DNA of 50,448 bases from Longimicrobiales bacterium (GCA_046537985.1 JBKHJU010000001.1:1-50448), one strand, 5' to 3'; numbered from the stretch's first letter, positions 2,963 to 40,671 are shown. Program-made: numbers and translations. Notes: generated from the letters alone by a model not told the origin.

Positions 2963-3002
2963 ACTTCCCCGTCCTCCCTGTGGGTGGCTCAGACCTGTAA
3001 CG

Positions 3003-5966: not shown

Positions 5967-6129
5967 CGTCGTCCTCCCAGGGGCGGGTGGCGTACATGGA
6001 GACCAGGGAGCCAAGAGCCACGAGTGTTATGACGGCCACGGCGGGGTAGGTCCCGAGGACGCCGGCCAGGACCGCACCGACGAACGCCGGGCCGCAGAGG
6101 ATCAGGACAAGCGGCGCGGGGTCACGCAT
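5953..6129 (-). CDS. Small two-helix membrane protein (58 aa)
   Basis: Two hydrophobic stretches (LVLILCGPAFVGAVLAGVL / VAVITLVALGSLV). ATG overlaps the upstream stop by 8 nt. Confidence 0.4.
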   Translation of the reverse strand: MRDPAPLVLILCGPAFVGAVLAGVLGTYPAVAVITLVALGSLVSMYATRPWEDDDAEG

Positions 6130-6502
6130 CGTCTCGCCCCCCTCGTCGGTAGGTCTCACCCACCATATCCAGGTCCCTCAGCGTCACCCACGCCGTCAGA
6201 CCCTCACCCCGGATCCGGTCCACCGTGCCCCGGGCGACCCTCACCCAGTCGTGCCAGGGGCGCCAGGGCCACGAGAGCAACCGCTCCCTCCAGGTCCTCC
6301 TCCGGGTGTAGACGATCTCCCGACCCTCGCCTGCCAGGAGTTCCACCAGGGCGGCGCAGTCCGGCTCGTCCAGGTGGAACCGGACGGAGCCCCGGATCCT
6401 CGTGAGACCCTCAAGCTCCAGGTCCTCCCGGGGAACGGTCCCGGGGATTCTGAGGTTGACCATCTCCGGGCCGTCGTCTCTTGGCTTCTCTCCGTCAGCC
6501 AT
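6122..6502 (-). CDS. Hypothetical acidic protein (126 aa)
   Basis: ATG preceded by GAGGGAGAGAGAG. Confidence 0.5.
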   Translation of the reverse strand: MADGEKPRDDGPEMVNLRIPGTVPREDLELEGLTRIRGSVRFHLDEPDCAALVELLAGEGREIVYTRRRTWRERLLSWPWRPWHDWVRVARGTVDRIRGEGLTAWVTLRDLDMVGETYRRGGRDDA

Positions 6503-7142
6503 CTCTCTCTCCCTCGAACGTTATGACGTGGTGTGAGTCTGACCCCTCCCGGGTCGCCCACGTGTACCTACGCCCCGTCCGGTCCAGCGCCTCCTGGAGG
6601 GCCTTGGTACAGCCGGGCAGGAACCGGTCGTGAGTCTCGATGAAGAGGAGAGCCACGGTCCGGAGCCACTCGGGGTCCGCCTCCAGGATCTCCCTCTCCA
6701 TCCCCTCTACGTCCATTTTCACGAGGTCGGGCGTCCACCCCTCCGGCAGGGCCTCGTCCAGGTTCATCGTCGGAACCGTGGCGATTCTGGCGCCGTCGTG
6801 ACCCTCGAGGGTGCTCGCCGCCCACTCCCCGCGGTCAGAGTCCCGGAGGACGATCTCTTTGCCACTCTCGGCCGCGAGGGCCCGGGTCCGGATCAGAGCC
6901 AGGGGCGCGTTCACCCCGGCCAGCTTGGCGTGTTCCGGGTGGGGCTCAAACCCGAGGACCTTGGCCTCCGGGTATCGGTCACACAACCACCGGGTTGAGA
7001 TCCCCGTGTAGGCTCCGGCGTCCACGATGAGCACCGGCGGGACCGGACACTCCACGTCGAACACCCTTCGAAGGTAGACCTCCCCGAATACCGTCACGTC
7101 CGTGGTCCCCGGGCGGACCATGACCGGCGCCACGGGACTCAC
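6495..7142 (-). CDS. FkbM-family methyltransferase
   Basis: VDAGAYTG...GFEPHP...VKMDVEGME. GTG start at 7142 overlaps the GT stop (GTGA). Confidence 0.65.
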   Translation of the reverse strand: MSPVAPVMVRPGTTDVTVFGEVYLRRVFDVECPVPPVLIVDAGAYTGISTRWLCDRYPEAKVLGFEPHPEHAKLAGVNAPLALIRTRALAAESGKEIVLRDSDRGEWAASTLEGHDGARIATVPTMNLDEALPEGWTPDLVKMDVEGMEREILEADPEWLRTVALLFIETHDRFLPGCTKALQEALDRTGRRYTWATREGSDSHHVITFEGERDG

Positions 7143-7804
7143 GTCTCGCCCCCGAACGACACCCTGGTCCACTCCTCGTGAGCCCACCCGGCCCGGGGGC
7201 TCGAGAACCGGGGGTGCCCGTGCCCCACCACGAGCCTGGATCCCGGCGGAGGGCCCTCCCGCGCCTCCTCCTTGAAACTGACGATCTGGCCCGGGTACAG
7301 GTCCATGAGCCGGTCCGCCCGCCCCTCCAGGAGCGAGTTCAGGTAGCGCCCGTCCCCCCGGAAGTCCCTCATGTGTCGCCGGGGCGCCTCACTCCAGGAG
7401 CTCCACACCTCCCGGGTGAGCGGTCCGGGACGAAACGCCATGACCCCGCTCTGGAGGATGTCGTGGTAGATCCCGGTCATCATCCCGAAGTCACCCGGGT
7501 AGTGTGCCAGGTCCTCAGGGCTTCCCACGACCAGGGTGTCCAGGTCCAGGTAGAGGACCAGCTCCCCGTCCGGAAAGAGGCCGGGCCCGAAGAGCTCCAT
7601 CTTGGACCACCACCCGGGCCAGGTGTAGCGGAGGGGAAACGCCCACTGGGGTGGAACGGAGTTCACGTCGGTGAGACAGGCGAACCGGTACGGCAGCGAG
7701 AGGTGGCGGGCCACGCCCCGCTTGAGGGCGTAGACCCACCGGGGATCATAGTCACCGCCGGAGCGGAGAACGCAAGCCACCGTGAGCCGCGCCTCGTTAC
7801 TCAC
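7139..7804 (-). CDS. Putative GT-A fold glycosyltransferase (DxD motif)
   Basis: N-terminal TVACVLRSGGDY and YLDLDTLVVG (DxD) resemble nucleotide-sugar transferases. GTGA overlap at 7801..7804. Confidence 0.45.
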   Translation of the reverse strand: MSNEARLTVACVLRSGGDYDPRWVYALKRGVARHLSLPYRFACLTDVNSVPPQWAFPLRYTWPGWWSKMELFGPGLFPDGELVLYLDLDTLVVGSPEDLAHYPGDFGMMTGIYHDILQSGVMAFRPGPLTREVWSSWSEAPRRHMRDFRGDGRYLNSLLEGRADRLMDLYPGQIVSFKEEAREGPPPGSRLVVGHGHPRFSSPRAGWAHEEWTRVSFGGET

Positions 7805-8037
7805 CTCCCCAGGCAGCAAAGCAGAGTCGCCACCGCCGCCAGCGCCTCAAGCCCCTCTTTGGCCTCCACCGGGTGTCCGTCCCACACGTGGGCCTCGGGG
7901 TCCCGCGGGTTCCTCCCGACGAACACCTCCCCGGTCTCGAGGTTGATGCCCAGGTAGGGACCGGCCTCGCCGTTGCGGTGGACCTCGACCGCCTCCCGTG
8001 TCGTCTCCGCGAACCTCGTCCCTCCACCTCTCTCCAT
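7801..8037 (-). CDS. Hypothetical 78-aa protein
   Basis: ORF that fills the gap and is coupled to the downstream gene. Confidence 0.35.
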   Translation of the reverse strand: MERGGGTRFAETTREAVEVHRNGEAGPYLGINLETGEVFVGRNPRDPEAHVWDGHPVEAKEGLEALAAVATLLCCLGR

Positions 8038-8049
8038 CGCCCTCTCCCT

Positions 8050-8421
8050 CTATGGCTTGGCGTCCTGACCGGTCTTGAGGAGCATGTCCCCCTCAAAGTA
8101 CGGGGTCCAGTCCACCGGGTTGTTGTACTTCCTCCAGATCTGATAGAAGTAGTAACCGGCGTCGAGGCCGTCCGTGTCGGTTCGCTCGATCGGGATCTCC
8201 GTCTCCCCGTTCGTCGGGTCGGAGTGGCTCCCGCTGGCCACGGTCACCTCCACCAGCGTCTCGGTGCCGCGGTCCTCTCCCACCCGGAGGACGATGTCGT
8301 CGTTGGAGATGTCAATGGTGTTCCCGTTCTCGTCCTTGAAGACGGCAGTCAGCTTATAGTCCGCCGCCAGGACGAGCTCTAGGTCTACGACGGTCGGGGT
8401 AACCTTCAGGGTCGTGGCCAT
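8050..8421 (-). CDS. Hypothetical beta-rich protein (123 aa); possible virion or decoration protein
   Basis: Strong SD: GGAGG, 5-nt spacer, ATG. Alternating polar/hydrophobic pattern. Confidence 0.45.
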   Translation of the reverse strand: MATTLKVTPTVVDLELVLAADYKLTAVFKDENGNTIDISNDDIVLRVGEDRGTETLVEVTVASGSHSDPTNGETEIPIERTDTDGLDAGYYFYQIWRKYNNPVDWTPYFEGDMLLKTGQDAKP

Positions 8422-8431
8422 GCGGACCTCC

Positions 8432-9871
8432 TCACTGTGCCGAGATGGTCAGATCGCCGTCCGGGGTCTGGCCCCCGAGCGATCCCGAGAGACTGGCGAC
8501 GGGAACCTCCACGAACGTCGTCGCCGCCGGGTCGTCGTACACGAGGTACGGTCCCTCGCCGGAGTCGCCCCCGATCCAGACCGGTCGGTTCGATCCGGCC
8601 CCCGCCCCCCCGTCCATTTCGACCTCCAGCGTCAACTCCGAGTCGGCCGAGATGGCCACGTCAAGGTTCATCTGCCCCGGCTCGATCTCGACTTGGGAGC
8701 CACCGTCGATGCGGTAGAAGATCTTCGTCCTGAGCGTGTCCTCGCTCGTCTCGACGCCCGGCGTTCGGTCGGTGTCTCCCCAGAACTCCCTCCCGAGGGC
8801 TCCGGGGACGCCGATCCCCTTGAGCGTGACGCCCTGCGGGAACGACCCCGCGGCGAACGTCTTGGTCCAAGTGGCCTTCTGCGCCCCGGCGTTGATTCTG
8901 ACCCAGAGGGTCCCGCTGCGGTTGTCGAGCGGGACGAGGACGTACGGATCCCTGGCTCCGATCGCACCCCGGTCGATCTCGGAGGTCGCCCTCTCCGATT
9001 CGTGCATGTCGGTATCGCGCACGCCCATCACCGCCATGGTCTCCACCAGGGCGCCGTCCGCCACCCCGAGCAGTCTCATGTGCCCCGGGACGCCCGAGAG
9101 GTGGATCAGGTGGTCATCGTCCCATCTCGCGATACCGGAGACGATGCGATCGGAGCGGTGGTCCAAGTTCTCCGCAACCGGAAATTCGGACACCGGGGTC
9201 AGGTAGTTCGCCAGGATCGTTGAGGATGACGCCTCGTCCGAGATGAGGACGGTCGCACCGGTGCCAGACTGGACCACGATACCGTGGCTGGTCGCAACCG
9301 GCTTGTTCCGGTCGTTTAAGGCGACCGGCGACGTCACCGTTCTGACGAGGCTCCCGTCGGCGGGGTCGTAGACGAATATCTCGGAACCGTTTGCGTTTTC
9401 CGTGATGTAGACCAGACCGTTGTGCGGACCGAACTCGACTCGGATCGGGCGAAACGGAAGCGCCCACGTCCTCACGATCCCGCCGCCCGGATCGTCCAGG
9501 TCCCAGACCGCCACCTGGTTCGGATCGTCCGAAATGGCGTATATCTCGCGGGCCGACTCGTCCACCACCACCCCGAATATCCCTTTGAGGTCAACGGACT
9601 GCTGAAAGCTCAGGTCCTCGTCGTAGAAGTAGACCTTTTCGGCTCTCCGGTTCGAGAGAAGCACCTTCCCGGAGTCATAGAAAGCCCACTGAGGCCAGCC
9701 ATCGGGTGGCCAGAGTGTCGGGTCGTCAAACGCCGTTTGGCCCCACGTCCCGAAAAAGTGCGGCTCCTCGGTGGAGATCCTCCGGGGCAGCCCGTCCCCG
9801 GCGGAGACGATCTCCGCCCCTCCCGAGAGGGTGGCGTCGTCGAGCTCGAGCTCCTCGATCTGAACCGTCAT
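8432..9871 (-). CDS. Hypothetical 479-aa beta-propeller-like protein
   Basis: Long ORF with repetitive beta-strand motifs (VYD..G..V, IFVYDPADGSLV). Confidence 0.5.
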   Translation of the reverse strand: MTVQIEELELDDATLSGGAEIVSAGDGLPRRISTEEPHFFGTWGQTAFDDPTLWPPDGWPQWAFYDSGKVLLSNRRAEKVYFYDEDLSFQQSVDLKGIFGVVVDESAREIYAISDDPNQVAVWDLDDPGGGIVRTWALPFRPIRVEFGPHNGLVYITENANGSEIFVYDPADGSLVRTVTSPVALNDRNKPVATSHGIVVQSGTGATVLISDEASSSTILANYLTPVSEFPVAENLDHRSDRIVSGIARWDDDHLIHLSGVPGHMRLLGVADGALVETMAVMGVRDTDMHESERATSEIDRGAIGARDPYVLVPLDNRSGTLWVRINAGAQKATWTKTFAAGSFPQGVTLKGIGVPGALGREFWGDTDRTPGVETSEDTLRTKIFYRIDGGSQVEIEPGQMNLDVAISADSELTLEVEMDGGAGAGSNRPVWIGGDSGEGPYLVYDDPAATTFVEVPVASLSGSLGGQTPDGDLTISAQ

Positions 9872-9872
9872 C

Positions 9873-10175
9873 TCAGACGATCTCCCCGGAGGCGATGCCC
9901 TGCTCCCGGAGCCACCCGTAGAGGCTCTTCTTGACCCCGCTGTAGAGATCGGGGTCCTCGGCGACCAGTGCCCAGAAGTCCTCGGCCGGGATCTCGACGA
10001 TGCGGGAGCGCACCCAGACCGGCTTTCCGTCGTCGTCCTCGTACCCCCAGAGCACGTCCAGGCTGGCGGTCGTCGGCCCCTTCCTCTCGGCCAGCCCCCG
10101 GAACTCCACCCGGTCGATCGTGGTCAGCGTCAGCGGAGGATCCTGCTCGGGTTCGTCCAGTCTAACCGGCGTCAT
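9873..10175 (-). CDS. Hypothetical 100-aa protein
   Basis: Coding-like ORF; a 1-nt gap separates it from the downstream start. Confidence 0.45.
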   Translation of the reverse strand: MTPVRLDEPEQDPPLTLTTIDRVEFRGLAERKGPTTASLDVLWGYEDDDGKPVWVRSRIVEIPAEDFWALVAEDPDLYSGVKKSLYGWLREQGIASGEIV

Positions 10176-10756: not shown

Positions 10757-12244
10757 CTACCTGAACCAGAACTCGCGGCCCTCCTCCCTCACCGTCAGGC
10801 GGTTGAAGGCGCCCACCGCCGCGTCCGCCGCGTCTATCAGTTTGGCCCCCGGCTCGAACCGCTGCAACTGCCGGAGCAGGCTCTCGTTCCAGGGACCCCG
10901 AACGAGCTTGACGTTTCCGGCCTCCGCCTGGGCGCTCATCGGTTTGGCTCTCGCCACCTTGTCGCCGGTCACCTTGTCCCGGTGAACGTCGTACCCGGCG
11001 AGGCGAGCCACCGCCGCCAGGGCCACGTCCTTTCCGGAGGAGCCGGGCTCCTGCTCGAGCCAGATGGCGACCCCGTTACCGTCCTCTTCCGCCACCTGGT
11101 CCTGAACGTCCTCCCGCTCCTTGGCGCTCCAGAACCCCTCGGTCACGTCCTCGATGTAGTAGGTGTCCCCAGCCTTCGACATCTTCACCCCGGCGGACCG
11201 TGCGGAGGCGCCCTCCTCCTTCGTGGTGGAGGCGGAGTCCCAGTACCGCACCCGCTCCGCCTCGGCCGGGGAAGCGTCCACGATCTCGAACCAACTCCGG
11301 TCGAACACCATCCCGGAGGTTTCCCGGACCATCCAGTTCCCGCCCCGGAGTCGGTCCCGGTCCACCTTGGGCAGCGCCTCGAGGATCGACAGGTACGTGG
11401 GGTCCTCCCTCATCAGGGTGGGGTTGTCCTCGAGCTTGGCTCGGATGAACGTGACCGACCGCGGGTGGATCCTCGGGTCCATGTCCCGGTCGTCCCGGAA
11501 GGCCACCGCCTCCTCCTCCGAGTCGAACCAATGGAGGTCGCCCTCGAAGCGGAGGAACCACCGGAGGACGCCGTCCCGCTCCTCGATCGGGAACCCGTCC
11601 TCGCCGATCCACCAGGAGAGGAGCTCGTGGAGCCACCCCCCGGTCTCGTCCTCCGGCGGGACCGGGTTGCAGGTCGCCCGGACGTAGGGCCTCACCCCAC
11701 AGGTCGAGCGGTTGCGGCTGGTGAGGTACCAGAACTGGCGCTCGGTGAACTCCTCCGCCTGATCCCACGCGATGAGCGGTATCTGTGAGGACTTCCACTC
11801 CAGCCGGTCCTTCTCGTGCTGGAGGTGGTGGAACGCCACCTTGGCGCCGGAGGGAAAACGCCACTCGTGGGAGGGGTTCTGGTAGGGCTCCGCCCCGAGC
11901 TCCGGGTATATCTTGTAGCTCGTGTCCCAGAGCCCGCCCTCCTGGGTGATGCGGGGCGACGTCCTCCGGAAGATCACCGCGTGGAAGTCGGGCACGTCGG
12001 TGTGGCGGCACGCCTCCATGAGGAGCCCGTAGGTCTTTCCGCCACCGGCCTCCCCGCCGTAGAAGACGATGTCCGCCCGGGTCTGGAGGAACCTCGCCTG
12101 CGGCCCGTCGTGGGGGCGGAGCGGCGGCTCCCCGAACTCGACCGAGTGGTCCTCCCCGGAGCGGACCAGGCCCTCGTAGAACATCGCGGCGAGCTGGTCC
12201 CGGACCGTGCCGCCCGCCCTCTTGCCCCTCAGCGGCGCGGCCAA
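10757..12244 (-). CDS. terL: Terminase large subunit
   Basis: Walker A GGEAGGGKTYGL, followed by a C-terminal nuclease-like domain. 495 aa. Confidence 0.85.
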   Translation of the reverse strand: MAAPLRGKRAGGTVRDQLAAMFYEGLVRSGEDHSVEFGEPPLRPHDGPQARFLQTRADIVFYGGEAGGGKTYGLLMEACRHTDVPDFHAVIFRRTSPRITQEGGLWDTSYKIYPELGAEPYQNPSHEWRFPSGAKVAFHHLQHEKDRLEWKSSQIPLIAWDQAEEFTERQFWYLTSRNRSTCGVRPYVRATCNPVPPEDETGGWLHELLSWWIGEDGFPIEERDGVLRWFLRFEGDLHWFDSEEEAVAFRDDRDMDPRIHPRSVTFIRAKLEDNPTLMREDPTYLSILEALPKVDRDRLRGGNWMVRETSGMVFDRSWFEIVDASPAEAERVRYWDSASTTKEEGASARSAGVKMSKAGDTYYIEDVTEGFWSAKEREDVQDQVAEEDGNGVAIWLEQEPGSSGKDVALAAVARLAGYDVHRDKVTGDKVARAKPMSAQAEAGNVKLVRGPWNESLLRQLQRFEPGAKLIDAADAAVGAFNRLTVREEGREFWFR

Positions 12245-15146: not shown

Positions 15147-16418
15147 TCACGTGACGGCCTTCACCAGCCACACCCGCTCCTCGCCCTCCACCAGGGACCT
15201 CTTGTAACCCTCTCTCTCGTACCACTCCTCGAGCCACGTGTCCGGACGGCAGGCCAACTCCACCATCTCCGAGCCGGCCGCCTCCTCCGCCGCCCGCAGC
15301 AGGCGCCGCCCATGACCGCGGCGCCGGTACTCGGGCCTCACGAAGAGATTGCAGACGGTGGGGTCCCCGGCCGAGGAGGACGGCCACTCCAACTCCACGC
15401 ACCCGACCGCCTCACCCCGCTCGGTGAGGAGAAAACGGGAGACCGCCAGCCCCTCCACGAGAGTGTCCAGGCGGATCAGGACCAGGTCGTCGGTCTCCGG
15501 CTCCTCTCCGTCCGACCGGTTCCGTGTCGTCCGCTCCTCCCGCCATGTCTCGTCGTCAAAGGGGCCGGCGCCGCACCCCGAGCAGGTGTCCTCTCCCTCC
15601 AGCGCGGCGGTCTGGCAGAGGGGACACCTCTTGAGCTCGGCTCCGACCCCCTGCCATCGACACTCCCGAAGGACGGGAAGAATCTGACGGGCGTAGACTT
15701 CCTCAACCCGGGCCCGCGCCCGCTGCAGTTCCGACCACGGAAGCCCCTGGCGCTCCGCCTCGGCAAAGTTCCGGAACGCCTCGGCCGCAGATCGCGCCGC
15801 CCTCCCACGCATCACCGACCGCTCCAGGTCGGTCAGGTCCCAGGCGTACAGCACCGCGTGGAGGTCGCCCCCTCCGATCCTCTTGAGGAGCAGCGGATCG
15901 GTGGGCGGGTCCGCCTCGATCCGGGTCGGGGACCACTCCTCCACCTCCCACAGAATGAAGTGATCCCGGAGGTAGCTCGCGCCACCGATCTTCCGGAGGC
16001 CCCCGGGGGGAACCATCGGGACCAGGGCGTACCAGCGCTCCATCTGACGGTAGTCCGACCACTCCTCCGTGGGGGGAGCCCCTCCCACGTCCACCCGAAC
16101 CTCCAGGGTGTCGGAGCGAACCGTGGCGCGCGGGCTCCGGGCGTCGAACTCCACGAACGTCCGCCCCCTGCGAAGGTTCAACTGGACCTGCTCACGGTCG
16201 GCCCTGGCCACCGCCAGGCGGGGGCGTCCACGGCGGTCGGCCCCGGCGGTCCTCATGGCGTCCCGGAGGCTGAGAAGCGACTCGCCGCTCGCCATCCTCT
16301 CGAGCCCGGCAAGGACCGCCTCGTACTCCTCGTCCGCCCGGCGCCGCAGCGCCCGGCGGTACTCCTCGGCCCTGGCCGCGGCCTCCGCCCGGTCCATCTC
16401 CATCGTCGGCACGTCCAT
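15147..16418 (-). CDS. Multi-domain protein with zinc ribbon and C-terminal GNAT acetyltransferase
   Basis: C-terminus VGCVELEW...VCNLFVRPEYRRRGHGRRLLRAAEEAA is a GNAT motif A. CPLCQ...CSGCG is a zinc ribbon. ATG at 16418 preceded by GAGAGGAGGGAG. Confidence 0.5.
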   Translation of the reverse strand: MDVPTMEMDRAEAAARAEEYRRALRRRADEEYEAVLAGLERMASGESLLSLRDAMRTAGADRRGRPRLAVARADREQVQLNLRRGRTFVEFDARSPRATVRSDTLEVRVDVGGAPPTEEWSDYRQMERWYALVPMVPPGGLRKIGGASYLRDHFILWEVEEWSPTRIEADPPTDPLLLKRIGGGDLHAVLYAWDLTDLERSVMRGRAARSAAEAFRNFAEAERQGLPWSELQRARARVEEVYARQILPVLRECRWQGVGAELKRCPLCQTAALEGEDTCSGCGAGPFDDETWREERTTRNRSDGEEPETDDLVLIRLDTLVEGLAVSRFLLTERGEAVGCVELEWPSSSAGDPTVCNLFVRPEYRRRGHGRRLLRAAEEAAGSEMVELACRPDTWLEEWYEREGYKRSLVEGEERVWLVKAVT

Positions 16419-16440
16419 CGGTCTCCCTCCTCTCAGGGGC

Positions 16441-16513
16441 CTGTGACACACACGAGACACACACGTCTAATATACTGGGGCCCCCGCGAGCGCAAACCCC
16501 GGACTGGGAAGCA
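16441..16513 (-). promoter_or_regulatory. Candidate promoter/leader region with TATATT -10-like hexamer and (GT/CA) alternating repeats
   Basis: Low-GC 53-bp gap. The minus strand reads ...TTTGCGCTCGCGGGGGCCCCAGTATATTAGACGTGTGTGTCTCGTGTGTGTCACAG.. before the RBS of gene 15147..16418. Confidence 0.3.
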
Positions 16514-24708: not shown

Positions 24709-24994
24709 CGTTTCCTCCTTCCTCGCCGTCGAAGTCCCAGTGCGTCGGCCTCCCCAGTGGCTGAGGGTCAAACCACCTCGCCACCAGGGTCGCGCCCAAC
24801 TCCGGATGCCGCTCCCCCTCCGGGCCGTCCATGTTGGGCTTCCCCCAGTAGCCCAGGTCGTGGACGAAGAACGCCACCCACAGCCGGGGGTCCCACGGGA
24901 ACCCGTACAGCTTCCACCACGCCCGGGCGACGAAGAACGGGTGCATCCAGAACGCGTGGACCCCGAAGAGCACCGACCTGGTCCCGACCCTCAT
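24695..24994 (-). CDS. Hypothetical 99-aa aromatic-rich protein
   Basis: NTGA-coupled to the upstream gene. Confidence 0.45.
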   Translation of the reverse strand: MRVGTRSVLFGVHAFWMHPFFVARAWWKLYGFPWDPRLWVAFFVHDLGYWGKPNMDGPEGERHPELGATLVARWFDPQPLGRPTHWDFDGEEGGNDADD

Positions 24995-25455
24995 GACTCC
25001 CCCTCGTTCGCCGGCGCCGGTCCGACGCCACCCCGGCGTATCAGCGCCCGGGCCTCACTCGGACTGACCATCGATCCGTACATGGCCGAGGCGAGGCGTC
25101 GGGCCAACTCCCCCAGGTAGCGCCGCCGCTTTCTGGGGTTCGCCTTCTGCCTCTTGAACGCCTCCCACTCCGCCCGGTGCGCCACCACCTCCTGGTCCAG
25201 CCGAAACTCCGCGTCCCGCAGGTAGCGATCCCACCACGCCTCCGGGTCCCCGTTCTGTTGACGAACGTGCTCCGTCTCGTGGGCGATCAGGGCGGGGCTC
25301 AGGTGTGCGCCGGACGGGTTGAAGATCGTGTCCGGACCCCACGCGAATATCTCGTTGCCCGTGAGGTCGAACGCGGCGCGGATCTCGCGGATGTTCGGCG
25401 GGTTCCGCTCCACGATCCTGACGCGGGGTCGGTCGGGGCGTCCGGTCTCGCTCAT
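24991..25455 (-). CDS. DUF4157-like putative zinc metallopeptidase (HExxH)
   Basis: LIAHETEHVRQQNGD matches the HExxHxxQQ signature of DUF4157. Confidence 0.5.
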   Translation of the reverse strand: MSETGRPDRPRVRIVERNPPNIREIRAAFDLTGNEIFAWGPDTIFNPSGAHLSPALIAHETEHVRQQNGDPEAWWDRYLRDAEFRLDQEVVAHRAEWEAFKRQKANPRKRRRYLGELARRLASAMYGSMVSPSEARALIRRGGVGPAPANEGES

Positions 25456-25952
25456 ACCGCCGCCAGCTCCCGCTCCGGCTCGGCCTCCTCCTCGGCGTCG
25501 GGCTCCCCGGTCGTCACCCGCTGACCGGAGGCGTAGGAGTGGGCCTGATCCGTGAGCTCCCGGATCCTCCCGCTCATGTCGGCGTTCATCCAGCCGGCGC
25601 CGGTCTCGGTCTCGCCGAGGAGGTCCGCGCTCTTGTCCCGGATGCGGGGGGTGTTCACCGCGTACTTCCCGGCCTCCACCTCGACCACGCCCGAGATCAC
25701 GACCCCCATCTGGTCGTTGGTCCCGTAGCTGAAACTCACGGTCGTGACCGTCAGCTTCTCGAGGAACGCCTCCGGGAGCTCCAGGATGCGGACCACGTCC
25801 TCGGCCAGGGCGTCCAGGGCCTCCTGGAACATACCCCGAGGCCTGTCCTCGGACTCGAGCTCGTGGCGCTCCCAGTCGTCGCCGTTACGGGTCCCCCACC
25901 TCAGCTCCACCGATTTCCCCTCGTGGTACTTCACCTTCAGCCATCTCGCCAC
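25452..25952 (-). CDS. Hypothetical 166-aa protein
   Basis: GTG preceded by GGAGGAG with a 6-nt spacer. Confidence 0.5.
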   Translation of the reverse strand: MARWLKVKYHEGKSVELRWGTRNGDDWERHELESEDRPRGMFQEALDALAEDVVRILELPEAFLEKLTVTTVSFSYGTNDQMGVVISGVVEVEAGKYAVNTPRIRDKSADLLGETETGAGWMNADMSGRIRELTDQAHSYASGQRVTTGEPDAEEEAEPERELAAV

Positions 25953-26136
25953 GGTTCTCCTCCTCTCTCTGCTCCCGGGCCGCCGCTCGGAGGCTCTCCC
26001 CGATCCGGTCCCGGTTCTCGTCTATCGCCCTGGACAGCACCTCCTCGGCCGCGTCCGGGTCGGACGCCAGCCTCCCCGCCAGCCGGAGCAGGTCCGAGTC
26101 CACCCAGACGAGGGCCGGGCACATGCGCCGAGTCAC
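25885..26136 (-). CDS. Candidate 83-aa acidic helical protein
   Basis: GTGA-coupled to the upstream peptide gene. Overlaps the next gene out of frame by 68 nt. Confidence 0.3.
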   Translation of the reverse strand: MTRRMCPALVWVDSDLLRLAGRLASDPDAAEEVLSRAIDENRDRIGESLRAAAREQREEENRGEMAEGEVPRGEIGGAEVGDP

Positions 26137-26246
26137 CGTCTCGTCCGGAGCCGCCGCTCCGCCTCCCGGTCGGCCAGGTCCACCTGGTGGAGGACCAGCG
26201 CCAGGGTCAGAGACCCGACGCCCACCGAGACCAGCACCCCGATCAC
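26133..26246 (-). CDS. Candidate 37-aa hydrophobic peptide
   Basis: VIGVLVSVGVGSLTLALVLHQVDL... with GTGA overlaps on both sides. Confidence 0.25.
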   Translation of the reverse strand: MIGVLVSVGVGSLTLALVLHQVDLADREAERRLRTRR

Positions 26247-27049
26247 GACCCCGCCCCGTGCTTGAACCACGCGCCCTTGCACCTCTCGTATACCGGCGTC
26301 ATGTCCCTCCTCCAGAACACGGCCATGGAGACCTGCTCGTCGTCCGACCACGGGGGTCGGCCCCCGTTCCGTCCGGAGCCCTCCCTCCAGGTCCTCGGGT
26401 CCCTGAGCATGGTCATGGCGCCGGTCACGACCTCCGGCCCGTCCCGCTCGGCCAGCCGGTTCCAGATGTCCAGCGCCCGGGCCACGCTCCACGGCGCGGC
26501 GTCGTCCCGGTCCGGCGGGTCCCGGCCGAGGAGAAACGCCTCCCGGTAGATCCCCGCCGCCCTGCTCCTCCACCCGTGGAGGTTCTCATCGTCGGGGGGC
26601 TCCCCCCCGGAGGGTTTACCCTCCGAACCACTAAACTCCTTCTTACTACCTCCTTCTTTGTATGCGTCCCGATTTCCCGCGTCCGGATTTCCCGCGTCCG
26701 GATTTTCCACGTCCGGAAAATCGGGATGTGGTGAATCTGGCTCTATGGTTAGGCTCTCGGGGAGCGCCAACTCCCACTCCGTCCCGACGAACTGCCCCTC
26801 GTCGCGCACCCGGCGGATCCGGAGGTACCCGGCCTCCTGGAGCTCGCAGATCCCGGTGTGAAGCGAGTGCTTCCCGTCGCTGGAGACGGTCACCAGGTGC
26901 GCGCGTCGGACCTGCCAGTCGGGCGGGCGACCCGCGAGGTAGGAGAAGAGGCCCTTGGCCTTCCACGACAGGTCCTCGTCGTTGAGGACCTCGTGGGGCA
27001 CCTGGGCGAAGGGGACGAGGGATCTCTTGAGCCGAACGAGGTCGGACAC
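26243..27049 (-). CDS. Replication initiator with winged-HTH N-terminal domain (lambda O-like organisation)
   Basis: N-terminus LSWKAKGLFSYLAGRPP...SLHTGICELQEAGYL is a wHTH. The origin-like iterons and AT-rich segment lie inside the inter-domain linker. Confidence 0.55.
   Translation of the reverse strand: MSDLVRLKRSLVPFAQVPHEVLNDEDLSWKAKGLFSYLAGRPPDWQVRRAHLVTVSSDGKHSLHTGICELQEAGYLRIRRVRDEGQFVGTEWELALPESLTIEPDSPHPDFPDVENPDAGNPDAGNRDAYKEGGSKKEFSGSEGKPSGGEPPDDENLHGWRSRAAGIYREAFLLGRDPPDRDDAAPWSVARALDIWNRLAERDGPEVVTGAMTMLRDPRTWREGSGRNGGRPPWSDDEQVSMAVFWRRDMTPVYERCKGAWFKHGAGS
26664..26726. repeat. Origin-like iterons: three direct 15-bp repeats plus one inverted copy
   Basis: gcgtcccgatttccc / gcgtccggatttccc / gcgtccggattttcc, then tccggaaaatcggga inverted. 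Adjacent 26631..26663 is 38 % GC against a 70 % background. Confidence 0.55.
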
Positions 27050-27127
27050 TACCGACCCCCCCGTGCCGAGTGGTCCACGACTCTCCTCTCAGGGGTGGAC
27101 GATCTCTCGGGGTCACACTACGTGGAC

Positions 27128-28891
27128 TCAACCTCCGCCGCCACTCGAGAAGAGGTCGGGGCCGGACCCGCCCGCCCCCTCTCCTCCGCCCTTGATCTGC
27201 CAGAACCTGGCCTCCAGTGGTTCCATCGCACGGGCCAGCGCGTCCCGGTCACCCGCGTCCTTCGCCTCCTCCACCGCCGCCGCCTCCTCCTCGGAGAGCT
27301 TCCCGGTCTGAGCCAGGAACGTGGTCACCTTGTCGGCCCGGTCCCGCTCCTCCCTCCGGATACCCTCCGGCTCCGGCTCCCGGCCCACGGAGGAGCCGTC
27401 ACCGTCGCTCTGAGGCGGATCGGACTGCGCCCCCCCCGTATCCCCTCCGCCGTTTTCGAGGCGCTCGAGGCGGGCGACGATGCGCGCCCACTTGGACTGT
27501 GGCCCCTCTCCCCGGGCTCCCTCCACCGATTCCACGCAGATGGCCACGACGTCGGGGGAGAGGTCCTCGTCCTCCGGGACCTCGTCCGGCAGCCGGGGGT
27601 GGTGGCGGAAGAACGCCGACACCTGCTGGTCGGTCGCGCCAGCCTCGTCCAGGAAGCCGGTCCACTTCTCCAGCAGGGCGCCCGGGCTCTGGATCTCCCT
27701 CCGGAGGGCGTCGAGCTCGGAGCGGAGCCGGTCCTTCAGGGACTCGGGGACCTGGGTACACTTGTCCGTCAGGACGTACCGGCGCAGGTAGCCCGTTCCA
27801 CTCTTGCGGTCGCCGTCCTCGGTCCAGCCGTACACCAGGTCCCGCCAGGTGAGATCCCCGTGTTTGCCGAAGCCGACTTTCCGGTCCAGCGGATCTGCGG
27901 GCTCGCTCTCCGCCTCACCGCCGTCCCCGGCCTCCGCCAGGGCCTCCAGGATCTCCTCCCTTAGCGCGTCCGGCGTCCGGTCCGCCTCCTCCGCCGCCCA
28001 CCGTGCCCAACCGGGGTCCTGCTCGATGACCTCCCGCCAGGTGAGACTCCGCTTCTCCTTCCCGAACCCCACCCTGTCGTCCAGGCTCGGCGGAGATCCG
28101 GAGCTGGATGACCGCCCGTAGGCCCGCTCGTCTCCACCCTGGACCTCCTCGTAGGAGACCTCCCCGGCGGCGACCAGGTTGCTCACGGCCCGGTTCGTGG
28201 CCCGAGTCTCGGCCGTCGCCACGCAGTCGTGACGGGCCTTTGCCAGCGCGGTCGGGTTCGGAACCCGGGTGCCGACGAGCTTCGGATCGTAGTCCCCCTC
28301 CTGGAGCTCGGTGCCGTCGTCGGCGCACCGGAAGTGGTTGTCCCACGAGTCGTCCTTCCGATTGTCGAACATCCTGCCGCCGCAGGTGGGACAGGGAGGG
28401 TAAGCCATCCGGAACCGAAGCTCCTCCGTGGAGCAGGAGCCGAGCGCCTCCGTGTACTGGCCCCAGGGCGCCACGGCACGGACCACCACGTCGGCGACGA
28501 AGGTCCGCTCGCCGTCCACCCGACTCCAGCCGGCCTCCTTTGAGACGACCTGGGTGGAGAGGTGGAAGAACCGGGCCATCTTGCGCCACGCCGACTTCCG
28601 CTTGAACGGGCGCCCGCCCTCCTCCTCCACGTCGTTCGGACCTATCAGCGCGTGGACCGCCCGGTCGTACGCCTCCATGAGCTTCTGCTGCTCCTCGATG
28701 GCCTCGTCCGTTGCGAGACCCTCTAGGAACTCCCGGAGCGAGACGGGCTCCTGCATGATGAGTGGCGGTGAGCGGTCCGGGGCGCTCGGCCCGCCGATCT
28801 CGGGGTGGCGCATCGGCACGGAGGGCGGTGGGGTGATCTCCCCGGAGTCCGAGTCCACCACGGTCCCGTCCTCGAGTCTCTCCTCTGGCAT
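27128..28891 (-). CDS. Putative single-strand annealing/recombination protein (Erf/Rad52-like N-terminus) with repeated C-terminal motifs
   Basis: Position beside SSB and Gam. N-terminal basic patch GRPFKRKSAWRK. Two VGFGK..LTWR repeats. ATG preceded by GAGGAGAGAGAG. Confidence 0.4.
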   Translation of the reverse strand: MPEERLEDGTVVDSDSGEITPPPSVPMRHPEIGGPSAPDRSPPLIMQEPVSLREFLEGLATDEAIEEQQKLMEAYDRAVHALIGPNDVEEEGGRPFKRKSAWRKMARFFHLSTQVVSKEAGWSRVDGERTFVADVVVRAVAPWGQYTEALGSCSTEELRFRMAYPPCPTCGGRMFDNRKDDSWDNHFRCADDGTELQEGDYDPKLVGTRVPNPTALAKARHDCVATAETRATNRAVSNLVAAGEVSYEEVQGGDERAYGRSSSSGSPPSLDDRVGFGKEKRSLTWREVIEQDPGWARWAAEEADRTPDALREEILEALAEAGDGGEAESEPADPLDRKVGFGKHGDLTWRDLVYGWTEDGDRKSGTGYLRRYVLTDKCTQVPESLKDRLRSELDALRREIQSPGALLEKWTGFLDEAGATDQQVSAFFRHHPRLPDEVPEDEDLSPDVVAICVESVEGARGEGPQSKWARIVARLERLENGGGDTGGAQSDPPQSDGDGSSVGREPEPEGIRREERDRADKVTTFLAQTGKLSEEEAAAVEEAKDAGDRDALARAMEPLEARFWQIKGGGEGAGGSGPDLFSSGGGG

Positions 28892-28922
28892 CTCTCTCTC
28901 CTCTATCTCTGTGACCCTCTCC

Positions 28923-28949
28923 GGGGGGAGGGGAGAACCCCCTCCCCCC
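28923..28949. other. Perfect 11-bp G/C hairpin with 5-nt loop: GGGGGGAGGGG-AGAAC-CCCCTCCCCCC
   Basis: Exact inverted repeat in the 75-bp gap between the Gam-like and SSAP genes. Confidence 0.5.
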
Positions 28950-28966
28950 TGTTGGTTGGAAGGTTA

Positions 28967-29614
28967 CTACTCCTTGGGCTTCACGTAAAACGTCCCACGG
29001 GCGTCACCGGGCACGAACCGAACCCCGTGCTCCTCGGCGTCCAGGACCTCCCCGGTCTCGGCCAGGACGCCCTCGTCGGTGAGCGCGTCCAGGATCGGCG
29101 TCTTGAGGACCGACCGGGTCACCTTGACCGCCTCGGGCACCGCGCTCCCGGCCCACTTTACGGCCCGCTCCTCGTTCACGACCTCGACGGTGGGACGAGT
29201 CGCCCGGAACCCGAACGTCCCGTGGGGCAGGTTCCGGGACTTCTTCCGCTTGAAGTCGTAGCCGCCCAGGGCCAGGAGTCGAACCTTGTTCTCCAGGTAC
29301 TCCACGGATGCCTCCAGGGAGTACCTCTCCCCCTTAAAGTGGTCCCGGATCATCTGGACCCTGCGCTCCTCCACCTCCTCGCTCTCCCGGATCTCCGCCC
29401 TGCGCTCGGCGATCCTCTCCAGGAGCGCGTCGATGCGGGAGTCTAACTCCGGGTTTCTCTCCACCGCCCGCACCTCCTCGTCCTCTCCCGCGTCCTCGAG
29501 GGCGATCTCCGCCCGCTTCACGTCGTCGGCGAGGCCGATCCGGCGGAGGAAGTCGTCCTCCTCACGCTCGATCTCGTCCACGATCTCCGGCCTGTCCCGC
29601 GCTGCGTCCGCCAT
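28967..29614 (-). CDS. Mu Gam-like host-nuclease inhibitor
   Basis: Coiled-coil N-terminal half and a C-terminal GTFGFRATRPTVEVVNEERAVKWAG...GVRFVPGDARGTFYVKPK resembling the Gam/Ku-like fold. Confidence 0.55.
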   Translation of the reverse strand: MADAARDRPEIVDEIEREEDDFLRRIGLADDVKRAEIALEDAGEDEEVRAVERNPELDSRIDALLERIAERRAEIRESEEVEERRVQMIRDHFKGERYSLEASVEYLENKVRLLALGGYDFKRKKSRNLPHGTFGFRATRPTVEVVNEERAVKWAGSAVPEAVKVTRSVLKTPILDALTDEGVLAETGEVLDAEEHGVRFVPGDARGTFYVKPKE

Positions 29615-37119: not shown

Positions 37120-40100
37120 CTACTCGTTCGTTATGGGGTTCAGGTCGTTGTCGAAGACCAGGTTGAGGTCATTCGTGAGGACTAGTCTGTCTAGTGCCCC
37201 AGCCTGAGCCTCGGCGCTGAGGGCGGGTCGCTGCCTCGATATCCTCCTTCGCCGACCCTGGTCTCCGCCGACCGATCCTCCGGAGAACGTCTCCCAGGCC
37301 TCCAGGTCGATCGTGATGTACTGCTCTCGCGAGATGGATAGCTGGATCTCGTAGCTACCGGCCGATGCGTCGGCGTCTGTGAGGAGCGGCAGGTCCGGAT
37401 CCAGGTCTCCCGCGGAGGCGTCGGCGTCGTGCCTGAGAGCCCGGATCCTCACTCCCCCGGTATAGGGGTTCGCCGACCACTCGAGCGTCGCCCTACCGCT
37501 GGACGAAATCGAGAGCGAGACGCTGAGGAAGTCGGGGGTCTCGGTCAACGTCTCGGAGGTCGTGGTGCCCCAGTCGGATGGCTGGTAATCCCGCGCCTCG
37601 GCACGGACCCTCTTCCAGAGGCGGCCGCCGTTCTGAAGCGTCCCCGTGTACAGGCACCCGGGCGCGTCCAGGAAACCCGCGAGCGTCCAGTCGGAGGAGT
37701 CCTCGTCGGGCTCCGGATCGCTCGGTCCGGTTACGGCGTACTCGACTCGGACCCGATACCCCGGGAGGTCGATGACCGGCCATTCGTCCTCGGAGACGCA
37801 GATCTGGAGGCCCTGGGCCTCCGTCTCAGCCGTGGACGTGATCTCTGGGGCCGTTAGCGATGGGGGAGCCCCGGCGTAGATGACCGCGACGAAGCCGTCC
37901 GTGCCCGCGCTCGCGCCACCGGTCGCAGACGCCCCGCCCCCCCCGGCCCCGAAGTCTCCGCCGCCCCGAGCCCCGGGGTTGTCGATCTGGACGGTCCCGT
38001 CGATCTCGCGGAAATACTCTCCGCCGTCCCCGCCGCCGCCGGCCGTGATGCCCCAGTCGTTCAGCGCCGTCTCGCCGCCGCCGGCGCCGGCACTCGTGGT
38101 GTTGCCCGCAACGTCGGCTGTTCCGTTCTCGCCTTCGGCCGCGAGCGAACCACCGCCGCCGCCGCCACCGCTGATCTCGTCGCCGGAGCCGTTGGATCCC
38201 TGACCGTCGCCGCCGTCGTTCCCCTGGCCGCTCTCGCTGCCCCCGCCGACCTGATTCTCCGCCGTACCGCCGGCCATGAATCCGCCGCCGCCACCGCCGC
38301 TTCCGCCAGCGCGCGGCGATCCGTTCGACCCGCCCCCTCGCCCGCCCCCCACGGCGGTCGTCTCGCTCGGTGCTGGGTCGCTGTCGGGGTCCAGGGCGGC
38401 CCCCGTGCTTGGGTCCCTCCAGAGGATCGAGTCCCCCCCGTCAGCCCCGACCGGCCCACCAGAGCCGACCGTGACTGGTATCGACTCGCCCGCCGGGATC
38501 GTGAGCTCTGCGATCTGGACGACGCCACCCGCGCCGGCGCCGCCGCCCACCCAGTCGCCGTTCGAGTCTCCGCCGCCTCCGCCGCCTCCGATCAGGACGA
38601 CCTGAACGGTCAGGTCCTTCGAGCAGGAGTTGACGATGTGGCCGTCCTCGAGGAAGTACCGGAGGCTGGCCCCCGAGGGAGCGGGGAAGAGCGTGCCGCC
38701 GATTGCGGTTCCTCCGGCCAGGCAGTCGACCCCTCCCTCGTCAACGAGGTCGGGGTCTTCGCTGAAGTCCGGGACGTTGCCGTCGACGAGGTACAGCTCC
38801 CGCCTCTCGGTCGAGACGTCCGAGATCCCGTAGATCTGCATATACCTTCGAAGGCCGCGCTTCCCGGTCGCGTACTCCGGGAGCCAGTCGACCGAGACGA
38901 GGAGCCAGTCGCCGATGTGGTGCTGGAGGTTTTCGTCCGTCGCCTGGACGGTCGCGACGTAGGTCGGCGCCCCCCTCTTGAACCTCGGCAGCACGATCCC
39001 GAAGGCCTTCTCGGCCAGGGGCTTGACGGGGTCGTGGTGCCACTCCTCGGAGTAGACCAGGCCGCCGCGGTGCCCCATCGCCCGGACGGTTATCGGGTTG
39101 TAGTCGAGGACCTTCGCCCCGGCGACTGCGTCGTCCGCCTCTTCGGAGAGCGTGACCTCCTCCTCCTCGATTCGGTCCCAGGGGTCGACGGGCTCGTCAT
39201 CGTCCAGGTCGTTAATTGTTCGGTAGACCTCCTCGGAGAGGAGGTGCTCTCGGATGTAGGTGTAGTTGACGCGCCGGATGGCGTTGCCGGTCCCGTGCTC
39301 CCATTCGCCGACGGGCTCGACCGAGTCGGCGTCGAGGACCGGGATCGACTCGGCATTGTTTGGAAGCTCCCAGGATGCCGGGAAGATCCTGTAGTTGTCG
39401 TTGAACGCCGGCGCCCGGAAGGCGACCTTGTAGACGTTCTCCTCGACCCACTTCCTCCTGTCCTTGACCTTCTCCCGAAGGATCATGCGGGCGACTGGCG
39501 ACTCACTCCTGAAGGCAGTCAGCTCCGCCTCGTCGTACCTCTCCCGGGGCGGCGTGTCGGAGTGCTCCCCGTCCACGATCTCCTGGAGCAGGTTCCCGAG
39601 GCTGCCGCCGTCCCAGAAGAAGGGATGCTCGCTCGAGACCTCCTCGGCCAGGACCTGGAACTCGATCTCCTGGCCGGTCGCCGGGATGTCGCTCTCGTCC
39701 AGACTCCCGAACCAGATCGCCTGCTTCGAGACCGCCTGCTCGCCGCCCCCCGGGATCACGTTCGGACCCTGGAGGATGCCCCAGCGGTCGTCCACGACGT
39801 TCCGGTTGCTCCGGGTCGGGAGCGCGGGCATGTCCCGGAGGACCGTCCAGTCGTCGTCGGATCCCTTCGCCCGCCAGCGGATCCGGATCTGCGTGTACTT
39901 CGGGAGGCCGTCCGAGTTGTCGACGATCGGCTCGCCGAGGTCCGGGAGGTCGAGCTTCCTCGTGACCGTCTCGCCGTTGACCTCCACCTCGGTCTCGACC
40001 GTGGCGAAGCCGCCGTAGATCTCGCCACCGAGGTAGGTCAGGTCGGAGAATCTCTTGAAGTGGTCGATCCCGCCGTCGTCCACGGACTCGAACGGCTCGA

Positions 40101-40671
40101 CGGCTTCGAGCATCGGCCTGGCGAGAGAACCGAAGACCGCGCGGATCCCCGGGTGCTCGCCGTAGTCGATCGCGGGACCCCTGGCGCCGTCCTTGCCCCA
40201 GAGGACGAAGTTGCTCGAGAACAGACCGTCGTCCCTCTCGAACTCGCGCCCGTCCCGGATGTTGAGGTCCAGGGCGACGACCTCCGGGGCCAGGCGGTGG
40301 CTCCCCACCGGCCCGTCGAGGATCGTGACCCAGGTTCCCGCGCTCGGGCGGTACCTCCGGAGGATCGCCCGGGCGCCGGTGACCCGGTCCGCCACCGAGG
40401 TGAGGATGCCCGAGTCCTGGTCCCCCTCCGTGAGCCGTTTGTCGAGGAGCCGGACCGACACCACTCCGATCGTGGAGGTGCCGCGGGGAAAGTCCACCTT
40501 CGCCGAAGTGAAGTCCTCCGGCGGGAGGAGGTAGGGACGGTCGTGGGAGAGGACCGGGTCCCGAGTCTGGAAGTCGGACTCGGAGACGACGTCGCCGCTG
40601 GAGAGGGATCCGAAGAACGGCTCCCCGCTCTCGTCCACCAGGGTGAGGTCGTAGACCGCTCGGGTCGCCAT
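37120..40671 (-). CDS. Tail tip / host-specificity protein (1183 aa) with central glycine-rich domain
   Basis: Size and position after the tape measure and distal tail genes, as in the lambda J position. Central 300 aa is G/S/D-rich low complexity. Confidence 0.6.
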   Translation of the reverse strand: MATRAVYDLTLVDESGEPFFGSLSSGDVVSESDFQTRDPVLSHDRPYLLPPEDFTSAKVDFPRGTSTIGVVSVRLLDKRLTEGDQDSGILTSVADRVTGARAILRRYRPSAGTWVTILDGPVGSHRLAPEVVALDLNIRDGREFERDDGLFSSNFVLWGKDGARGPAIDYGEHPGIRAVFGSLARPMLEAVEPFESVDDGGIDHFKRFSDLTYLGGEIYGGFATVETEVEVNGETVTRKLDLPDLGEPIVDNSDGLPKYTQIRIRWRAKGSDDDWTVLRDMPALPTRSNRNVVDDRWGILQGPNVIPGGGEQAVSKQAIWFGSLDESDIPATGQEIEFQVLAEEVSSEHPFFWDGGSLGNLLQEIVDGEHSDTPPRERYDEAELTAFRSESPVARMILREKVKDRRKWVEENVYKVAFRAPAFNDNYRIFPASWELPNNAESIPVLDADSVEPVGEWEHGTGNAIRRVNYTYIREHLLSEEVYRTINDLDDDEPVDPWDRIEEEEVTLSEEADDAVAGAKVLDYNPITVRAMGHRGGLVYSEEWHHDPVKPLAEKAFGIVLPRFKRGAPTYVATVQATDENLQHHIGDWLLVSVDWLPEYATGKRGLRRYMQIYGISDVSTERRELYLVDGNVPDFSEDPDLVDEGGVDCLAGGTAIGGTLFPAPSGASLRYFLEDGHIVNSCSKDLTVQVVLIGGGGGGGDSNGDWVGGGAGAGGVVQIAELTIPAGESIPVTVGSGGPVGADGGDSILWRDPSTGAALDPDSDPAPSETTAVGGGRGGGSNGSPRAGGSGGGGGGFMAGGTAENQVGGGSESGQGNDGGDGQGSNGSGDEISGGGGGGGSLAAEGENGTADVAGNTTSAGAGGGETALNDWGITAGGGGDGGEYFREIDGTVQIDNPGARGGGDFGAGGGGASATGGASAGTDGFVAVIYAGAPPSLTAPEITSTAETEAQGLQICVSEDEWPVIDLPGYRVRVEYAVTGPSDPEPDEDSSDWTLAGFLDAPGCLYTGTLQNGGRLWKRVRAEARDYQPSDWGTTTSETLTETPDFLSVSLSISSSGRATLEWSANPYTGGVRIRALRHDADASAGDLDPDLPLLTDADASAGSYEIQLSISREQYITIDLEAWETFSGGSVGGDQGRRRRISRQRPALSAEAQAGALDRLVLTNDLNLVFDNDLNPITNE

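Follow-up and report, generated by a model that had tools for sequence, protein, structure and literature searches.

Why should a block of short tandem repeats, set beside DNA as AT rich as any in a 69.8%-GC genome, lie in the middle of a gene for a putative replication initiator? The DNA analyzed here (the window) is an entire 50,448-bp contig, deposited as "MAG: Longimicrobiales bacterium." All confident ORFs are on the minus strand. Because the contig encodes a portal (560 to 1966), a large terminase (10757 to 12244), and an ORF of tape-measure size (37120 to 40671; 1,183 amino acids), together with an SSB, a Mu Gam-like protein, a DnaQ-like exonuclease, and a DNA methylase, we regard it as a tailed-phage genome or prophage. 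Although deposited as a bacterial MAG, the contig is gene dense, has its genes on one strand, and resembles a phage over its whole length; it probably represents all or nearly all of a phage genome that was binned with its presumed host. A check of the contig ends for an overlap indicating circularity found none, and a DNA similarity search with positions 25000 to 29000 against 50,697 phage records returned no match. The packaging and head module has an unusual interruption, with ∼9 kb separating the large terminase from the portal; the interval 2378 to 10175 contains FkbM-type methyltransferase-like and sulfotransferase-like ORFs and several unknowns. A 437-amino-acid protein with a GNAT domain is encoded at 15147 to 16460.

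The first-pass annotation had described the block as an intragenic origin-like element within the initiator gene. At the level of sequence, this reading is supported by homology to phage TP901-1, by the layout of the element, by codon choice, by conservation across a protein family, and by a natural chimera in a related locus (L003). We conclude that positions 26608 to 26738, which lie where the phage's own initiator gene encodes the linker, are, in all likelihood, the replication origin of this tailed phage of roughly 50 kb. GC skew, which had been proposed as a check on the origin, was uninformative, since every gene has the same orientation and the cumulative skew runs monotonically.

The gene in question (26243 to 27049, minus strand; GTG start, 268 amino acids, GC3 of 0.87) was assigned as a replication initiator or replisome organizer by ORF analysis, PHROG, BLASTP, and tblastn. 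It is located in a recombination/replication module beside the SSB and Gam genes, as in TP901-1. The encoded protein has a winged-helix domain at its N terminus, joined by a linker to a helical C-domain. The N-terminal DNA-binding domain (about amino acids 1 to 100; 26750 to 27049, minus strand) is a divergent winged helix of the HTH_36 type according to homology and predicted secondary structure (helices and a beta hairpin), and is the presumed reader of the repeats. PHROG replication initiation families matched amino acids 14 to 125 (e.g., phrog_4707 at 4e-14). No Pfam family, HTH_36 included, matched the window initiator at an E value of ≤0.1; Pfam HTH_36 was matched by its relatives TP901-1 Rep, Aleemily gp46, and a Bacteroides phage protein. 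Searching annotated phages by tblastn yielded 235 records matching the initiator, TP901-1 rep among them, and the annotations among the matches listed were mostly replication initiation protein, RepA-like initiator, and HTH DNA-binding protein. PDB sequence and profile searches with the initiator gave nothing significant, the profile search returning weak matches to wHTH regulators (E value of 0.12 to 0.4).

In contrast to the N-terminal ∼140 residues, which were matched by 14,648 representative relatives in an exhaustive HMMER search, the C-terminal part was matched by only one, P0003, the initiator of locus L003. This all-helical domain of unassigned family (about amino acids 148 to 268; 26246 to 26607, minus strand), delimited by comparison with P0003 and P0002 (the initiator of loci L001 and L002) and by a structure model, is 82 to 84% identical in these two proteins, with no other occurrence found. 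No relative of either the full-length protein or its C-domain turned up in scans of viral, metagenome, and genome collections. The model of the C-domain was poor (pLDDT 56), and a Foldseek search with it against the PDB returned only noise (E value of ≥1.3). By analogy with other initiators, we infer that the C-domain recruits host replication proteins. Neither Pfam nor PHROG gave a helicase-loader match in the two downstream ORFs searched (25452 to 25952 and 24991 to 25455). The AlphaFold model of the whole initiator was also poor (pLDDT 41.6), with amino acids 95 to 153 lacking secondary structure, and conservation between the initiator and P0003 restarted at about amino acids 142 to 147. 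Taken with the extent of the PHROG matches, these boundaries place the repeats and the AT-rich stretch in the linker between the wHTH N-domain and the C-domain, as first annotated.

Two neighbors of the initiator deserve mention. Between it and the Gam-like gene lies an ORF for a 587-amino-acid protein (27128 to 28891, minus strand) without a Pfam or PHROG family; it is conserved in L001 (595 amino acids) and L003 (599 amino acids) and carries a zinc-ribbon-like motif (CPTCGG...FRCADDG). This protein could be a missing replication or recombination partner. Immediately upstream of the initiator is a 9-codon leader mini-ORF (27049 to 27078, minus strand; GTG GAC CAC TCG GCA CGG GGG GGT CGG TAG), preceded by a strong Shine-Dalgarno sequence, GAGAGGAGAG, its TAG stop sharing one base with the initiator's GTG start. 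The mini-ORF is kept in L001 (L001:2704-2744), there with an ATG start; in L003 (9560 to 9575) the same Shine-Dalgarno sequence and ATG instead open an uncalled wHTH-HNH ORF (about 9573 to 10001). These arrangements suggest translational coupling or a remnant of the insertion or loss of an HNH gene.

The repeats form an array of five 15-bp units (26664 to 26738, minus strand), defined by Tandem Repeats Finder, a repeat search, and comparison with the family and TP901-1. On the coding strand it reads CCAGATTCACCACAT (degenerate), CCCGATTTTCCGGAC (opposite orientation), GTGGAAAATCCGGAC, GCGGGAAATCCGGAC, and GCGGGAAATCGGGAC; it is encoded by amino acids 104 to 128 of 268 and translates as PDSPHPDFPDVENPDAGNPDAGNRD. 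Tandem Repeats Finder reported positions 26664 to 26717 with a period of 15, 3.6 copies, and 92% matches; the score of 87 was the highest in the window and exceeded the maximum of 80 across 40 triplet-block shuffles. The three direct 15-bp repeats and one inverted copy described initially were all recovered, and the array extends to four to five units. The direct copies occupy 26664 to 26678, 26679 to 26693, and 26694 to 26708. In the fourth unit (26709 to 26723), ACGTCCGG is retained with AAAA in place of TTT, which produces an inverted pair (26667 to 26679 and 26714 to 26726; 92% complementary). A fifth, degenerate unit at 26724 to 26738 is suggested by sequence comparison with L001. No iteron unit was found elsewhere in the window at up to 2 mismatches. 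The core GGAAAWYC is common to the window iterons and the family. Complete recoding of the window core, GGAAAATCC, by synonymous changes is impossible.

Adjoining the array is an AT-rich stretch (26626 to 26663, minus strand; 36.8% GC by a GC scan of the window), purine rich on the coding strand and presumed to be a DNA unwinding element. The 33-bp stretch annotated earlier at 38% GC is present (26631 to 26663) and differs trivially in composition: its GC content is 36.4%, which ties for the lowest of any 33-mer among all 50,416 positions. The tract is encoded by amino acids 129 to 141 of 268 and contains two 11-mers 14 bp apart, AAGAAGGAGGT (26648 to 26658) and AAGAAGGAGTT (26634 to 26644), a pair that is exact in L001. 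Elsewhere in the window, GC content is also low at about 8123 and 35549; neither spot has a repeat array, and the codons at about 8123 are mostly the preferred G/C-ending ones. No second site in the window joins repeats with an AT-rich tract. No internal promoter or terminator was found. On the C-domain side of the tract is a perfect 7-bp palindrome with a 4-nucleotide loop (26608 to 26625, minus strand; coding strand CGGAGGG TAAA CCCTCCG), which is identical in L001. The order along the gene is iterons, AT-rich stretch, and short palindrome. That of ori-lambda is iterons, AT-rich tract, and palindrome, with the palindrome beyond the AT-rich tract.

The linker also stands out in what it encodes. 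The peptide KEGGSKKEFSGSEGK (amino acids 131 to 145) contains 4 lysines in 15 residues in a proteome with 2.0% lysine, a density reached by 2 of 12,271 windows, and bears out the reported lysine-rich peptide in a lysine-poor proteome. Genes of the contig have a GC3 of 0.90; among 13,055 codons, the two 15-codon windows with the lowest GC3 (5/15 each) are both in the linker, one in the AT-rich stretch and the other in the iteron part. For linker codons 100 to 144, the synonymous-codon log-likelihood was −77.5, the lowest of 10,591 windows (mean, −35.0; standard deviation, 7.3; z about −5.8). All three Asn codons of the linker are AAT (4% usage), and its Asp, Phe, Glu, Lys, Gly, and Ser codons are rare A/T-ending ones. 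Since no other part of the contig departs so far from the norm in its choice among synonymous codons, the constraint acts on nucleotides and not on amino acids alone. The original proposal of DNA-level selection therefore holds, with synonymous codons providing a better argument than the forcing of lysines by AT-rich DNA. The odd peptide (PDFPDVENPDAGNPDAGN...KEGGSKKEF) would largely be a passenger translation of DNA signals in a disordered linker.

Comparison with L001, whose initiator is 84% identical to that of the window at the amino acid level, showed how the array changes. The L001 array is in the same place and keeps the 15-bp register, but most units have T4 where the window has A4 (GATTTTCCGGA versus GAAAATCCGGA), and the number of units differs (4 to 5 in the window versus 5 to 6 in L001). 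For the peptide, the exchange of A4 to T4 converts NPD to FPD, a radical change from Asn to Phe. For the DNA, it amounts to the same 8-mer (GATTTTCC / GGAAAATC) inverted beside a palindromic TCCGGA, such that iteron orientation can flip in place with the reading frame intact. Over the ∼60 nucleotides that begin where the array ends and take in the AT-rich tract and the hairpin, the window and L001 differ at only 2 positions, both nonsynonymous; outside this stretch, the gene has about 86% nucleotide identity with L001, as read from the alignment. By a rough binomial estimate from the aligned sequences, the AT-rich tract would be more conserved than the rest of the gene, at marginal significance.

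The initiator of L003 is a natural chimera: its C-domain is 82% identical to that of the window initiator, and its N-part is different (HTH_36 plus HNH). Nucleotide homology between the window and L003 starts exactly at the hairpin. At the junction, L003 has three TGGAC-N6-GTCCA dyads (L003:10621-10682) with 23-bp spacing, clustered there only, followed by a 12-bp tandem repeat, the GC and GC3 minimum of the gene, the hairpin, and the shared C-domain. The palindrome reads CGGAGGA TAAA TCCTCCG in L003 (CGGAGGATAAATCCTCCG versus CGGAGGGTAAACCCTCCG in the window), a double change that keeps the pairing while altering two amino acids (G to D and P to S); this compensatory change is a single event, drawn from two close relatives. 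In the chimera, N-domain and repeats thus travel together, as expected of an origin specificity cassette. In lambdoid phages, the N-domain plus iterons form such an exchangeable cassette. The HNH motif in the L003 initiator (L003:10001-11116), between HTH_36 and the shared C-domain, is unusual for a replication initiator, and the separate wHTH-HNH ORF that precedes this gene (L003:9573-10001) is a second of this kind. GTCCAC words upstream of the window gene were considered as half-sites of the L003 type and rejected; they are unconserved in the alignment and probably due to chance.

The closest characterized counterparts are the lactococcal-type replisome organizers. According to PMC8965321, the replisome organizers TP901-1 ORF13 and Tuc2009 Rep2009 each recognize and bind direct repeats in their own genes, the repeats are described as determined to be the phage ori (citing Ostergaard 2001), and the repeats provided in trans give a phage interference phenotype. 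The TP901-1 Rep N-domain is homologous to that of the window (BLASTP, 31% identity over amino acids 5 to 172, E value of 1e-19; tblastn, 36.8% identity, E value of 2e-12). In both, direct repeats come right after the N-domain, followed by an AT-rich tract with short repeats of its own, and genes for SSB and recombination are found directly upstream. The repeats themselves hardly differ as DNA (GATTTTCCAGATGTGG in TP901-1 and GATTTTCCGGACGTGG in the window, with GATTTTCCRGAYGTGG common to both), and the last unit of each array is an inverted GGAAATC. The coding strand of TP901-1 has CCAGAT TCC GATTTTCCAGATGTGG CTTTTCCAGATGTGG GAAATCAG, followed by an AT-rich tract that shows a 15-bp periodicity; that of the window has CCAGAT TCACCACATCCC GATTTTCCGGACGTGG AAAATCCGGACGCGG GAAATCCGGACGCGG GAAATCGGGAC, followed by its AT-rich tract. 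This likeness holds between phages whose host genomes are ∼35% GC (TP901-1) and 70% GC, and the window needs rare codons for it. The hosts differ, a 70%-GC Gemmatimonadota-type organism versus a 35%-GC Firmicute, and it is because of the 70%-GC host that the window element stands out by composition. The window also has more units than TP901-1, mostly in the opposite orientation. TP901-1 Rep combines HTH_36 with a DnaB_2/DnaD-like C-domain (PF07261, 2.5e-11), whereas the C-domain of the window initiator is an unrelated, helical orphan. Since C-domains differ widely among N-domain relatives, we treated the DnaD-like domain as a variable module and not as family defining.

To place the element in its family, we assembled loci encoding relatives of the N-domain, drawing on IMG/VR, GTDB genomes, and JGI metagenomes, which gave 177 distinct proteins with a complete linker from many phyla. 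The distance from the conserved Trp (W) of the WKAKG motif to the lowest-GC 33-mer downstream in the ORF had a median of 103 codons (interquartile range, 94 to 112; n = 177), and this 33-mer was at W+80 to W+135 in 85% of the relatives; in the window it is at W+100. Tandem repeats were detected by Tandem Repeats Finder in the linker zone of 153 of the 177 (86%), with a period of 15 or 30 in 112 of these. GGAAAWYC occurred at 8.0 per kb in the linker zone versus 0.17 per kb elsewhere in the loci, a 47-fold enrichment. At the 21 loci with a GC content of at least 0.55, the minimum falls to 0.21 to 0.45. Well-conserved 16- or 17-bp repeats were present in 31 relatives, where they are read in three frames and yield no peptide repeat; in L025, for example, CAGGAGTCCAGAAAAC is present in 3.3 copies at 97% identity and encodes SGVQKTRSPENQESRKPG. 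Because periods of 16 and 17 bp cannot encode a peptide repeat, these repeats must be kept as DNA. Annotated actinophage, Bacteroides, and Lactococcus examples have the same layout. Peptides such as x-P-D/E-x-x and S/T-K-K-E recur across the family. One N-domain relative, L167 (JASFMV010000001.1, 45033 to 48275), was recovered from a 65-kb contig assigned by binning to a Nitrosopumilaceae archaeon MAG; this contig may be a misbinned phage or something more interesting.

The element is thus of an ordinary kind, its arrangement having been proven already for TP901-1 and being known from lambda and SPP1. Lambda O was the model suggested by the first-pass annotation, and the intragenic layout is indeed alike: in lambda, iterons and an AT-rich tract lie in the middle of O (PMC7466680). 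In both, the origin (putative in the window) is mid-gene, where the linker joining the DNA-binding N-domain to the C-domain is encoded, and extra iterons add residues to the protein; the lambda O C-domain recruits a helicase loader. However, lambda O has no detectable sequence relationship to the window initiator, which lacks a Pfam Phage_rep_O match; lambda iterons are ∼19 bp and dyad symmetric versus 15 bp in the window; and no lambda P-like gene was recognized downstream of the window initiator. The shared mid-gene origin therefore shows how the element works and not membership in the lambda O family, and the closest model is the TP901-1/Tuc2009 replisome organizer type. SPP1 G38P likewise is a non-AAA+ replisome organizer with intragenic sites, its binding repeats (AB boxes) and DUE being embedded in its own gene 38 (PMC5737612). 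The window initiator has no Pfam match to the N- or C-terminal families of G38P, and SPP1 encodes its own loader and helicase (G39P and G40P), neither of which was recognized on the window contig. Iteron plasmids (RepA/RepE/pi, Rep_3) also combine a winged-helix initiator with tandem iterons beside an AT-rich DUE, and actinophage annotators name homologues of the window protein "RepA-like replication initiator." Plasmid iterons, however, are about 17 to 22 bp and lie outside the rep gene, whereas those of the window are intragenic, and the window initiator has no Pfam match to Rep_3.

Homology to TP901-1 ORF13/Tuc2009 Rep2009, together with analogy to lambda O and SPP1 G38P, suggests how such an origin would operate. 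The N-terminal winged-helix domain would bind the 15-bp iterons (core GGAAAATCC, both orientations), and the bound initiators would oligomerize and distort the DNA, such that the adjoining 38-bp AT-rich tract could melt. The C-terminal helical domain would then bring in the host helicase and loader, the neighboring phage SSB would stabilize the bubble, and replication would start here. We propose recruitment of host proteins because no helicase, primase, or polymerase was recognized on the contig. Helicase recruitment is the weakest link of this scheme, given an orphan C-domain and the lack of any recognized loader gene.

Other explanations of the block were weighed against an origin. Iterons commonly have control roles, such as autoregulation and copy control, and the array could accordingly be an initiator-binding cluster for autoregulation or titration/handcuffing, with replication starting elsewhere or otherwise (e.g., by a recombination-dependent route). 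The presence of the Gam-like protein, SSB, and DnaQ-like exonuclease on the contig and the lack of a recognized helicase or loader gene are consistent with this idea. However, a pure operator needs no tract of lowest GC, yet the array abuts one; this pairing of repeats and AT-rich DNA occurs at no other site in the window; and in the homologous TP901-1, the intragenic repeats are the ori according to the passage cited above (PMC8965321). We consider a solely regulatory array unlikely. We assign a still lower probability, amounting to serious doubt, to selection of the linker as protein, in which a slippage-prone, low-complexity pentapeptide repeat would serve as a flexible Pro/Asp/Asn spacer with a charged Lys/Glu patch and the DNA would have no role. 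Such a linker would agree with the predicted lack of structure, with the difference in copy number between the window and L001, and with the recurrence of similar peptides in the family, but it would not account for the most deviant synonymous codon choice in the contig or for changes between the window and L001 that are radical for the peptide and keep the DNA motif and register. Nor does it fit the 16- and 17-bp repeats of 31 relatives, which encode no peptide repeat in their three frames, or the reporting of the TP901-1 repeats as ori (PMC8965321).

The atypical composition could instead mark a recombination junction, or recently imported DNA, between protein modules and have no function of its own. 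The exchange of N- and C-modules exactly at the linker in L003 points in this direction, although a mosaic boundary at a cassette of ori plus N-domain is what the origin model itself predicts. A nonfunctional junction is difficult to reconcile with a layout that recurs, at an equivalent position, in 177 relatives whose GC contents vary widely, or with an AT-rich tract that is nearly identical in L001 though the gene as a whole has diverged to about 86% nucleotide identity, and we give it very little credence. Finally, the AT-rich tract contains a Shine-Dalgarno-like AAGGAGGT, and the first of its 11-mers is a perfect anti-Shine-Dalgarno match, with an out-of-frame GTG at 26631; these words might drive internal translation (of a C-domain protein or of an overlapping 68-amino-acid ORF, 26425 to 26631) or ribosome pausing. 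No in-frame ATG, GTG, or TTG lies between the Shine-Dalgarno-like word and the C-domain, however, and the AT-rich tracts of other family members are without such words. The GTG is lost in L001 (AGTGG to AGAGG), and we rejected the internal start and overlapping ORF on the basis of this lack of conservation; a translational role as a whole seems hardly credible.

An origin embedded in its own initiator gene is thus the reading that we retain. It leaves the known working of such origins unchanged and provides a concrete candidate, ∼130 bp of origin plus an initiator, for a phage of a poorly studied and largely uncultivated lineage (Longimicrobiales, Gemmatimonadota), useful both in the construction of replicons or vectors and in inferring the state of replication from metagenomic coverage. 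It also yields a rule for locating origins of this type, namely, a GC minimum with tandem repeats about 70 to 130 codons after the WKAKG motif, and cautions against overinterpreting odd low-complexity peptides in such proteins, since the conserved thing is the DNA.

The most noteworthy by-product is a family-wide regularity: a shared iteron core, non-triplet periods, and flips of orientation. We lean, by a modest degree, toward the view that one and the same origin cassette is very widespread and that the window exemplifies it; in this cassette, a winged helix, its own 15- to 17-bp iterons (core GGAAAAYCC), and an unwinding tract would share one reading frame in phages and prophages assigned to many bacterial phyla, including Bacillota, Bacteroidota, Actinomycetota, Nitrospirota, Verrucomicrobiota, Gemmatimonadota, and others. 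The general principle is already known; what may be unreported so far is its breadth and the conserved core. If this view is correct, the "xENPx...TNKE/SKKE" peptides of thousands of proteins annotated as "HTH" or "hypothetical" would be passenger translations of the origin, and the origins of thousands of uncultivated phages could be readable directly from sequence.
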